From positions 21,142,001 to 21,206,000 of the forward strand of contig OZ024761.1 in the NCBI GenBank assembly GCA_964016885.1: a DNA stretch of 64,000 nt. Reading direction: 5' to 3'. The position numbers were made by a program, and so were the translations under genes. The DNA is from Eledone cirrhosa. Lineage: Eukaryota. This document shows, in pieces, positions 32,198 through 35,100 of this stretch. How positions within the stretch are numbered: the first letter of the stretch is position 1; every line of letters starts with the position of its first letter. The notes under the pieces were generated by a model, which was given only the letters and a program-made list of their open reading frames with translations, was not told the origin of the DNA and ran no database searches.

Positions 32198-35100
32198 CTG
32201 TGGGAGAGAAGAGAGAAGGTGATGATGGTTAATAATAGATGTGGGAGAGAGGAGAGTAGAAGATAGTGGTGATGGTGATGGTTAAGACATCTGTGGGAGA
32301 GAGGAGAGTAGAAGATAGTAGTGATGGTGATGGTTAAGACATCTGTGGGAGAGGGGAGAGTAGAAGATAGTGGTGATGGTGATGGTTAAGACATCTGTGG
32401 GAGAGGGGAGAGTAGAAGATAGTAGTGATGGTGATGGTTAAGACATCTGTGGGAGAGGGGAGAGTAGAAGATAGTGGTGATGGTGATGGTTAAGACATCT
32501 GTGGGAGAGGGGAGAGTAGAAGATAGTAGTGATGGTGATGGTTAAGACATCTGTGGGAGAGGGGAGAGTAGAAGATAGTGGTGATGGTGATGGTTAAGAC
32601 ATCTGTGGGAGAGGGGAGAGTAGAAGATAGTGGTGATGGTGATGGTTAAAACATCTGTGGGAGAGGGGAGAGTAGAAGATAGTGGTGATGGTGATGGTTA
32701 AGACATCTGTGGGAGAGGGGAGAGTAGAAGATAGTAGTGATGGTGATGGTTAAGACATCTGTGGGAGAGGGGAGAGTAGAAGATAGTGGTGATGGTGATG
32801 GTTAAGACATCTGTGGGAGAGGGGAGAGTAGAAGATAGTGGTGATGGTGATGGTTAAGACATCTGTGGGAGAGAGGAGAGTAGAAGATAGTGGTGATGGT
32901 GATGGTTAAGACATCTGTGGGAGAGGGGAGAGTAGAAGATAGTGGTGATGGTGATGGTTAAGACATCTGTGGGAGAGGGGAGAGTAGAAGATAGTAGTGA
33001 TGGTGATGGTTAAGACATCTGTGGGAGAGGGGAGAGTAGAAGATAGTGGTGATGGTGATGGTTAAGACATCTGTGGGAGAGGGGAGAGTAGAAGATAGTA
33101 GTGATGGTGATGGTTAAGACATCTGTGGGAGAGGGGAGAGTAGAAGATAGTGGTGATGGTGATGGTTAAGACATCTGTGGGAGAGGGGAGAGTAGAAGAT
33201 AGTGGTGATGGTGATGGTTAAGACATCTGTGGGAGAGGGGAGAGTAGAAGATAGTGGTGATGGTGATGGTTAAGACATCTGTGGGAGAGAGGAGAGTAGA
33301 AGATAGTGGTGATGGTGATGGTTAAGACATCTGTGGGAGAGGGGAGAGTAGAAGATAGTAGTGATGGTGATGGTTAAGACATCTGTGGGAGAGGGGAGAG
33401 TAGAAGATAGTGGTGATGGTGATGGTTAAGACATCTGTGGGAGAGGGGAGAGTAGAAGATAGTGGTGATGGTGATGGTTAAGACATCTGTGGGAGAGGGG
33501 AGAGTAGAAGATAGTGGTGATGGTGATGGTTAAGACATCTGTGGGAGAGGGGAGAGTAGAAGATAGTGGTGATGGTGATGGTTAAGACATCTGTGGGAGA
33601 GGGGAGAGTAGAAGATAGTGGTGATGGTGATGATGATATATATATATTACCTGCAATGGCTTTTTTAATACTGTTCATATCGAAAAAGTTTCCCTCAACA
33701 GTTGGATCAAACTGTTGTATCTTTTCACAAAGTTCCTTGTTTACATACTGGAATAGAAGATGGGGAAAGAAAACCAAAATAAAAGAAATGGTGGAATATC
33801 TGACGAAAACTTTGAATTATGTTTTCTGGCTTTTAAAAGATGTAATTTTTCTCTTTCAAATACATATAACTGCAAAGGGTGTAGCTAAAATGGCATAGCT
33901 AAAAAGGTATACAGACACACATATATATATATATATATATATATATATATATATATATCATCACCGTTGTGAGCTGGTCATGCTGGTGACACCATAAAAA
34001 GCACCCAGTCCACACTGTAAAGTGGTCATGTAGGTGACACAACAAAAAGCATCCAGCGCACACAGTAAATGTGGTTGGTGCTAGGAAGAGCATCCAGTCG
34101 TAGAAAACCTGCCAGCTACTCTCCTATATGAGTGAGACACAGTTACCCGACCAAACTTGGCTCAAGTGGGACAAACCGTCTAACCCATGCTAACATGAAA
34201 GATGGACATTAATCGATGATGATGATGACGACGATGTATGAAAAATGTTCAAAGCTCACATGTTCCAAGAAAATACGTTCTTCAATCTCTTCATTTTCTT
34301 CTTCTTCTTTTTCTGCTTCTTCTTCTTCTTCTTTTTTATTTGCTGGTACGAAGAAGAAGACACCAATAACTGCCAACAAAATGTTGTTGATGTTTTCTGG
34401 AATGTCGTTAGAACTGCACAACATTTGTAAAGTCTCTTGTTCAATTTTATTGATGTGTTCTCTGATGTCCAGCAACAACAGACGGTCAAACATTACATTA
34501 ATTCGAAGGATTTCTTCAGTTATTTTTGATTCAGCAGCTGTCGAGTAAATAAACAAGTGAGACGGGGTATATAACTGTTTCTACTTTTGGCACAAGGCCA
34601 GCAATTATCTCAGTACATTACTGGTACTTTATTTTATCAACCCCGTATGAATGACAGGCAAAGTTAACCTCGGTGGGATTTGAACTAAGAATGTAAAGGG
34701 TCATAACTCTATGCTGCAAAGCATGGTGTCTGACCCTCTACTGATACTGCCAATCCACTGTATAGTACATAGAATAATGTACAAATACTGTGAGATATTA
34801 TGTGAGGTAAAGCCTTTACTGTGAAAATACAATAGTATATATAGAGTAATGTAAATGTTATGTGAGATATTATGTAAGGTAAAGCCTTTACTGTGAAAAT
34901 ACAATAGTATATATAGAGTAATGTAAATGGTATGTGAGATATTATGTGAGGTAAAGACTTTACTGTGAAAATACAATAGTATATATAGAGTAATGTAAAT
35001 GTTATGTGAGATATTATGTGAGGTAAAGCCTTTACTGTGAAAATACAATAGTATATATAGAGTAATGTAAATGTTATGTGAGATATTATGTAAGGTAAAG

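Follow-up and report, generated by a model that had tools for sequence, protein, structure and literature searches.

Reiterated splice junctions in other genes

The closest described counterparts of the structure reported here are the 'mirages' of amphioxus, minisatellite-like duplications of intron/exon boundaries that occur in Adh3, troponin C, BflGb6, BflGb9 and PGBD5 (PMC3087553; PMC3902484). In the globin gene BflGb6 the 3' end of an intron is repeated together with the start of the next exon in 3-6 copies, most units keep their splice signals, and it is reported that cluster edges escape homogenisation, that splicing is regular and that cluster length is unstable (PMC3087553; PMC3902484). 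A duplicated intron 7/exon 8 junction in CBS, 844ins68, is resolved at the distal site (PMC2630376; the text speaks of a 'donor', whereas the junction and the cited title concern the 3' site). On the donor side, human VNTRs reiterate the junction in F7 intron 7 (37 bp, of which 4 are exon and 33 intron nt), IFI6/6-16 (25 pseudo-sites), CBS intron 13, LMNB2 and PDGF; only the authentic site is used in F7, LMNB2 and PDGF, two pseudo-sites are used as well in IFI6 and CBS, and experiments with duplicated sites conflict as to whether the proximal or the distal copy is taken (PMC1557585).

The array found in the last intron of the EFCAB5 gene of Eledone cirrhosa shares with the amphioxus mirages a tandem unit that spans an intron/exon boundary, retained splice signals and diverged edges. 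By this anatomy it can be assigned to the mirage class rather than to a new system, silent splicing and length instability being features reported for the amphioxus clusters. It differs from them in its host (a mollusc rather than a cephalochordate), in its 26 copies as against the 3-6 of BflGb6, in the inclusion of only 4 exon nt per unit, and in its position before a terminal exon, which has no downstream donor. CBS 844ins68 likewise duplicates an acceptor along with a small part of the exon, and there the distal, exon-adjacent site is strongly favoured; it consists, however, of two copies rather than an amplified array, it concerns an internal exon, and its site usage has been measured. As in the human VNTRs, where the exon-adjacent site dominates, the junction is reiterated through the intron, and the F7 unit also contains 4 exon nt, but it is the donor that is repeated in those genes and the acceptor in EFCAB5. 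The 5'-to-3' scanning rule that explains F7 would thus pick the wrong site here unless exon context fixes the choice of branch point. Several acceptor-like sites within a single intron are also typical of recursive (ratchet-point) splicing and of NAGNAG tandem acceptors; the EFCAB5 units depart from ratchet points in reading AG/AT, which regenerates no donor, and from NAGNAG sites in their frame-shifting spacing of 52 nt instead of 3 nt. No acceptor array of a cephalopod turned up in a search of the literature.

The EFCAB5 gene and its C-terminal domain

The window, i.e. the whole stretch of 64,000 nt analysed here, lies on contig C22 of a 3.0-Gb genome. An upstream exon matches proteins from Octopus, Argonauta, echinoderms, limpet and vertebrates, mostly named EFCAB5 or EFCAB5-like (best identity 63%), and the matches named EFCAB5-like range from molluscs to mammals. 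The EFCAB5 protein of O. vulgaris gives 14 colinear matches through the last exon, the final one beginning at 32198, as an orthologue should, and this colinearity, together with tblastn searches with Octopus EFCAB5, bears out the gene name given in the original prediction. The conserved head of the last exon is 61% identical to O. sinensis EFCAB5 over 33 aa, within the range of the other matched exons (about 29-78%), and its single match in the genome (very common words being skipped in the search) points to a single-copy gene. A protein search with a mid-gene exon found nothing, and one among representatives returned seven short unnamed matches, which were left unused. Elsewhere in the window, the stretch 4581-5142 (plus strand) contains an exon for an SH3 domain that we take to be RIMS-binding-protein-like; a 36-bp array begins a few bases past its likely donor, with a unit that does not contain the junction.

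Table 1. Features at the 3' end of the EFCAB5 gene, in order of transcription (window positions)
Feature	Position	Strand	Basis
Last coding exon but one (97 nt) of the EFCAB5 orthologue, ending in phase 1	33651..33747	-	tblastn with Octopus EFCAB5; translation
5' splice donor AG/GTAATA and 18 nt of unique intron preceding the array	33633..33650	-	sequence
52-bp minisatellite, 26.8 copies, 26 decoy AGs	32240..33632	-	Tandem Repeats Finder (period 52, 98% matches); sequence; single locus in genome
27th (edge) copy, ending CAT; start of the 91-nt AG-free zone	32239..32290	-	sequence
True 3' splice-site segment, homologous to the unit but diverged: TTAAC (its A at -32, position 32229), unbroken 18-nt pyrimidine tract, CAG	32198..32238	-	sequence; alignment
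Conserved head of the last exon, coding for the final two helices of the dynein-MTBD-like C-terminal domain	32085..32197	-	O. sinensis identity; invariant columns; model helices
33-bp coding tandem repeat, 16 copies, lineage-specific acidic tail	31489..32023	-	Tandem Repeats Finder; translation; absent from Octopus orthologues
Cluster of four AATAAA motifs, likely poly(A) signal (use inferred)	31272..31335	-	sequence

Past its head the last exon runs through the 33-bp repeat, one copy of which carries an in-frame 3-nt insertion, to a stop codon at 31421-31419 (minus strand). Compared with the Octopus orthologues, three of which stop 7-25 residues past the last helix, the repeat adds about 220 residues to the C-terminus, so that the tail is lineage-specific. 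A second minus-strand frame is also open through the repeat, and the open frame of the tail therefore says little by itself.

What does the conserved part of this exon encode? A profile of six EFCAB5 C-termini matches the microtubule-binding domain (MTBD) of yeast dynein at E 7e-5, and 24 of the 28 matches obtained at E<=1 are dynein chains; radial spoke protein 2 of Chlamydomonas matches the profile weakly (E 0.15). A structural model of the O. sinensis domain (pLDDT 85.5) retrieves with Foldseek first a bovine axoneme chain, presumably EFCAB5 itself, and then dynein chains at probability 1.00 and TM 0.6-0.73, none of which reaches E<=0.001. Pfam places no such family in any of the six members of the profile, nor does it name one for the C-terminal domain or the last exon. 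In both sequence and fold, profile and model thus indicate that the domain, encoded by the last three exons (32085-34538, minus strand), is homologous to the dynein MTBD, microtubule binding by EFCAB5 being putative. The link was not found in the main texts of two EFCAB5 papers or in one literature search, and Extended Data Fig. 5 of PMC11779644, on domain organisation, may already state it. As a side observation, the PDB chain 9fqr_Xl (1,509 residues) matches EFCAB5 at E 4e-212 but bears the label 'A-kinase anchoring protein 14', which is probably misassigned.

The last exon contributes helices 114-117 and 121-147 of the model and six of the 22 invariant columns of the profile, and all six invariant residues of this segment are kept in Eledone, which suggests an exon under constraint. 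Splicing to a decoy would replace the 259 residues encoded from the true site by a tail of 37 residues at 24 of the 26 decoys, and of 53 and 20 residues at the last two. The 37-residue peptide originally predicted is accordingly right in length for these 24 and exact for 13. It had also been proposed that decoy use drops a conserved last helix together with the repeat tail; the helices do lie in the last exon, but the tail is not conserved, being missing from the Octopus orthologues. On the evidence of the model, the decoy product would be a broken domain that is likely non-functional, which points to loss of function rather than to a tuned isoform and argues that selection maintains the dominance of the true site. 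Mammalian EFCAB5 is a sperm-specific protein of radial spoke 3 whose loss lowers sperm motility and fertility (PMC11779644; PMC12423330), fertility in mice lacking Efcab5 being reduced and not abolished (PMC12423330).

Anatomy of the acceptor array

The last EFCAB5 intron (33650..32198, minus strand, 1,453 nt) contains 27 AG dinucleotides, namely the true one at 32198 and 26 decoys that follow one another in exact 52-nt steps (33591, 33539 ... 32291). The arrangement is head-to-tail and minisatellite-like, each full unit being made up of 48 intron and 4 exon nt, and all 26 decoys read AG/AT. The full units carry a branch-like TTAAC motif with its A at -44, then a C-rich pyrimidine tract and CAG. 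As in the mirages, most units keep the splice signal and the edge copies diverge: CAG is retained at the end of 26 of the 27 copies, the first is a 42-nt partial unit lacking TTAAC (a YTRAY search over the 100 nt upstream of this decoy gave no match), and the 27th, on the exon side, has no AG. The 91-nt AG-free zone before the true site compares with 11-334 nt at 15 other EFCAB5 acceptors, and the first AATAAA lies 862 nt from the true acceptor versus 2,255 nt from the first decoy.

The central claim of the original prediction, an intron filled with about 26 copies of its own 3' splice site, is thereby upheld, as is the distance of 60 nt between the donor and the first decoy. The branch-point-like TTAAC ascribed to every unit is present in the 25 complete decoys and missing from the first. 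The copy before the true site, said to have 'lost its AG', indeed has none, but a loss under selection is harder to maintain, as edge copies typically escape homogenisation (PMC3087553).

Could the array be an expansion created by the assembler? In favour of this, the analysis of two read runs (one sample, possibly the assembly's own) covered the flank of the array and skipped the repeat itself; the runs behave as DNA, and the absence of splice joints on the donor side has no bearing on expression. Against an expansion stand the five unit variants, which are interspersed without a period, and the flank of the array: both runs yield a 334-nt contig on 33649-33905 with 46 further letters that take its end to 33603, precisely where the last unique 31-mer would end if the unit were repeated in the reads, since the 31-mer graph must then branch. 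This lends indirect support to at least two copies of the unit in the reads, and we regard an assembly artefact as scarcely credible.

Origin and age of the unit

Aligned with the true acceptor, the unit scores 41, whereas none of 55 other acceptors from the genome exceeds 17 and none of 2,000 shuffles with the junction preserved exceeds 33. A 15-nt junction word recurs in 26 copies, and a 20-nt tract holds 11-12 C in both unit and true acceptor and in none of the 55 other acceptors. A dispersed element or a second copy of the gene was rejected, the genome searches (one haplotype, very common words skipped) matching the 52-bp unit at this locus only. Alignment, junction word and single locus thus agree that the unit straddles the intron/exon boundary of this very gene and arose from it, as mirage units do. 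We infer that the array was born locally, by a short duplication across the acceptor followed by minisatellite amplification, in an intron that would measure about 101 nt without it. The array is young: compared with the commonest unit, its copies show 0.44 differences each.

None of the 55 other acceptors (15 in EFCAB5, 40 in myosin/kinesin genes) has upstream copies of its junction, which fits a low rate of random birth. The region is repeat-rich: tandem repeats, including 15 complex minisatellites, occupy 47% of the window as against 15% of the sequence at 60 exon loci elsewhere. If minisatellites are born at random, a crude model puts the chance per junction at 1.4% here versus 0.3% in the 60 loci, and yields a 38% chance of at least one such array among the ~34 junctions of EFCAB5, with the EFCAB5 array itself counted in the rate and selection ignored. 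On these grounds the array calls for no adaptive explanation. Arrays near exon edges at 4761, 54751, 60421 and 61108 do not include the junction, and the minisatellites at 54751-55505, 60421-60857 and 61108-61531 leave 15-60 nt between themselves and EFCAB5 splice sites, which they do not cover.

Two further repeats deserve mention for themselves. A 72-bp AT-rich minisatellite in another part of EFCAB5 intron sequence (34789-36332) has a relative beside a kinesin exon (L067:793-1069) ~0.6 Mb away on the same contig, and the occurrence of related copies at two loci marks it as a dispersed family, unlike the 52-bp unit. Four kinesin exon matches of equal length and profile range (L059, L061, L064 and L065, on C22, C18 and twice on C1636) share, in three of the four cases, a 91-bp minisatellite and are possibly a recent segmental duplication or haplotig.

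Site strength and context

That the decoys look like good acceptors, as originally proposed, is confirmed by splice-site scoring. In a model built from 55 sites of this genome (15 from EFCAB5 and 40 from myosin/kinesin genes, the latter chosen among 60 loci with a similar model and hence biased high) the true site scores 10.1 bits and the decoys 8.7-10.0; two other small models give, for true site versus decoys, 7.7 versus 5.7-6.2 and 9.6 versus 8.1-10.6 bits, the best decoy exceeding the true site in the last. About 1.2-1.5% of 1,724 background AGs reach scores as high. Site strength, which differs by about 1 bit, was therefore discarded as the discriminator. The context differs: the G content of the 50 nt past the AG is 0.26 at the true site and 0.02 at a decoy (the minimum among 55 real exons being 0.06), and an exon/intron 4-mer score gives -0.08 versus -0.20 to -0.32, with all 15 other EFCAB5 exons at or above -0.17, although the true exon head is itself near the low end of EFCAB5 exons on this model.

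The array strand contains 3.7% G and folds weakly, and masking by secondary structure was not convincing (z -2.06, with a low-frequency MFE structure). The unit resembles the minor (U12) branch motif; a U12-type reading was rejected, the donor being GTAATA and the motif lying 44 nt from the AG. Recursive splicing in its classical form fails at 26 of 26 decoys for want of a regenerated donor. Of the two mechanisms originally put forward for skipping the decoys, exon definition or recursion, the former thus stands as likely, exon context and precedent speaking for it, and the latter falls.

How is the true acceptor chosen?

A terminal acceptor is coupled to the poly(A) site, and the choice between duplicated sites depends on the flanking exon sequence. 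We consider it reasonably probable that the array is a tolerated, largely silent junction-spanning minisatellite, and predict splicing mainly to the exon-adjacent site. The array would have begun when a short segment straddling the acceptor, with 48 nt of intron and 4 nt of exon, was duplicated; ordinary minisatellite amplification would have followed, leaving out the edge copies. Context rather than strength would then select the true site: exon-like sequence would mark the true AG only (26% G over the 50 nt that follow it, versus 2% past a decoy), its proximity to the poly(A) signals would favour terminal-exon definition, and the branch motif at -32 rather than -44, together with the AG-free zone, may aid it further. 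Some leakage to decoys, at a low level, is likely, and the resulting protein would be truncated and probably non-functional. Against a largely silent array count the near-equal scores of the decoys, the best of which exceeds the true site in one model, the low 4-mer score of the true exon head, the weak folding of the array strand, and the conflicting experiments on duplicated sites (PMC1557585). In addition, intron definition could favour decoy 2, which has a full branch motif and tract and would define a 112-nt intron, and, the array being young, conservation of the last exon may predate it. How much leakage, then, should be expected? That at least 10% of transcripts use decoys, mostly the donor-proximal complete ones, as a mildly deleterious load with no regulatory role, is conceivable, though we are inclined to doubt it. 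Near-equal acceptor scores and the 25 complete decoys with TTAAC speak for it, as does a G-poor, weakly folding array strand, in which structure is unlikely to hide the decoys. Junction-dependent decay does not remove RNAs with a stop codon in the terminal exon, where the decoy stops lie, and is therefore predicted to spare such RNAs. Use of neighbouring pseudo-sites in the IFI6 and CBS VNTRs adds a precedent (PMC1557585), whereas the mirage papers report normal splicing (PMC3087553; PMC3902484), and the sequence around the decoys is unlike that of exons.

It is improbable that leakage goes so far that decoys dominate, intron definition taking decoy 2 so that the allele mainly yields C-terminally truncated EFCAB5. 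The size of the array-free intron would suit such a choice, the array is too young for decay of the last exon to show, and, if the mouse is a guide, where loss of Efcab5 is reported to reduce fertility rather than abolish it, a hypomorph could persist (PMC12423330). However, all invariant residues are kept in the last exon, the AG-less edge copy gives the true site a clean zone, and the precedents consulted favour the exon-adjacent site (PMC2630376; PMC3087553). More improbable still is a regulated rheostat, in which the length of the array or the state of the cell would set how much full-length EFCAB5 is made relative to a short C-terminal isoform. In its favour, the decoys are plausible acceptors, almost all of them yield one 37-residue tail, and minisatellites vary in length (PMC3087553); yet an identical tail is the mechanical result of identical units, the short product would lack the helices that close a folded domain, and the array is young, with no Octopus orthologue on record having such an end. 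The suggestion in the original prediction that array length tunes isoform ratios finds no support here, and the decoy product would break a folded domain.

Implications

The homology between EFCAB5 and the dynein MTBD may interest axoneme specialists more than the array does. For the array itself, the boldest extension of the rheostat would have copy number set decoy use, yielding a decay-resistant isoform with a cut dynein-MTBD-like radial-spoke domain, so that repeat length tunes octopod sperm motility; we hold this to be very unlikely. Were it true that decoy use depends on length, the locus would be a rare case of a repeat-length splicing switch acting on a sperm-motility protein. As a silent mirage, by contrast, the EFCAB5 array would be ordinary, and the class would be extended to cephalopods. 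In either case it offers a natural experiment, in which 25 complete, near-identical acceptors precede a terminal exon without a downstream donor, and such an array could show whether the acceptor is chosen by scanning or intron definition, or else by terminal-exon definition.
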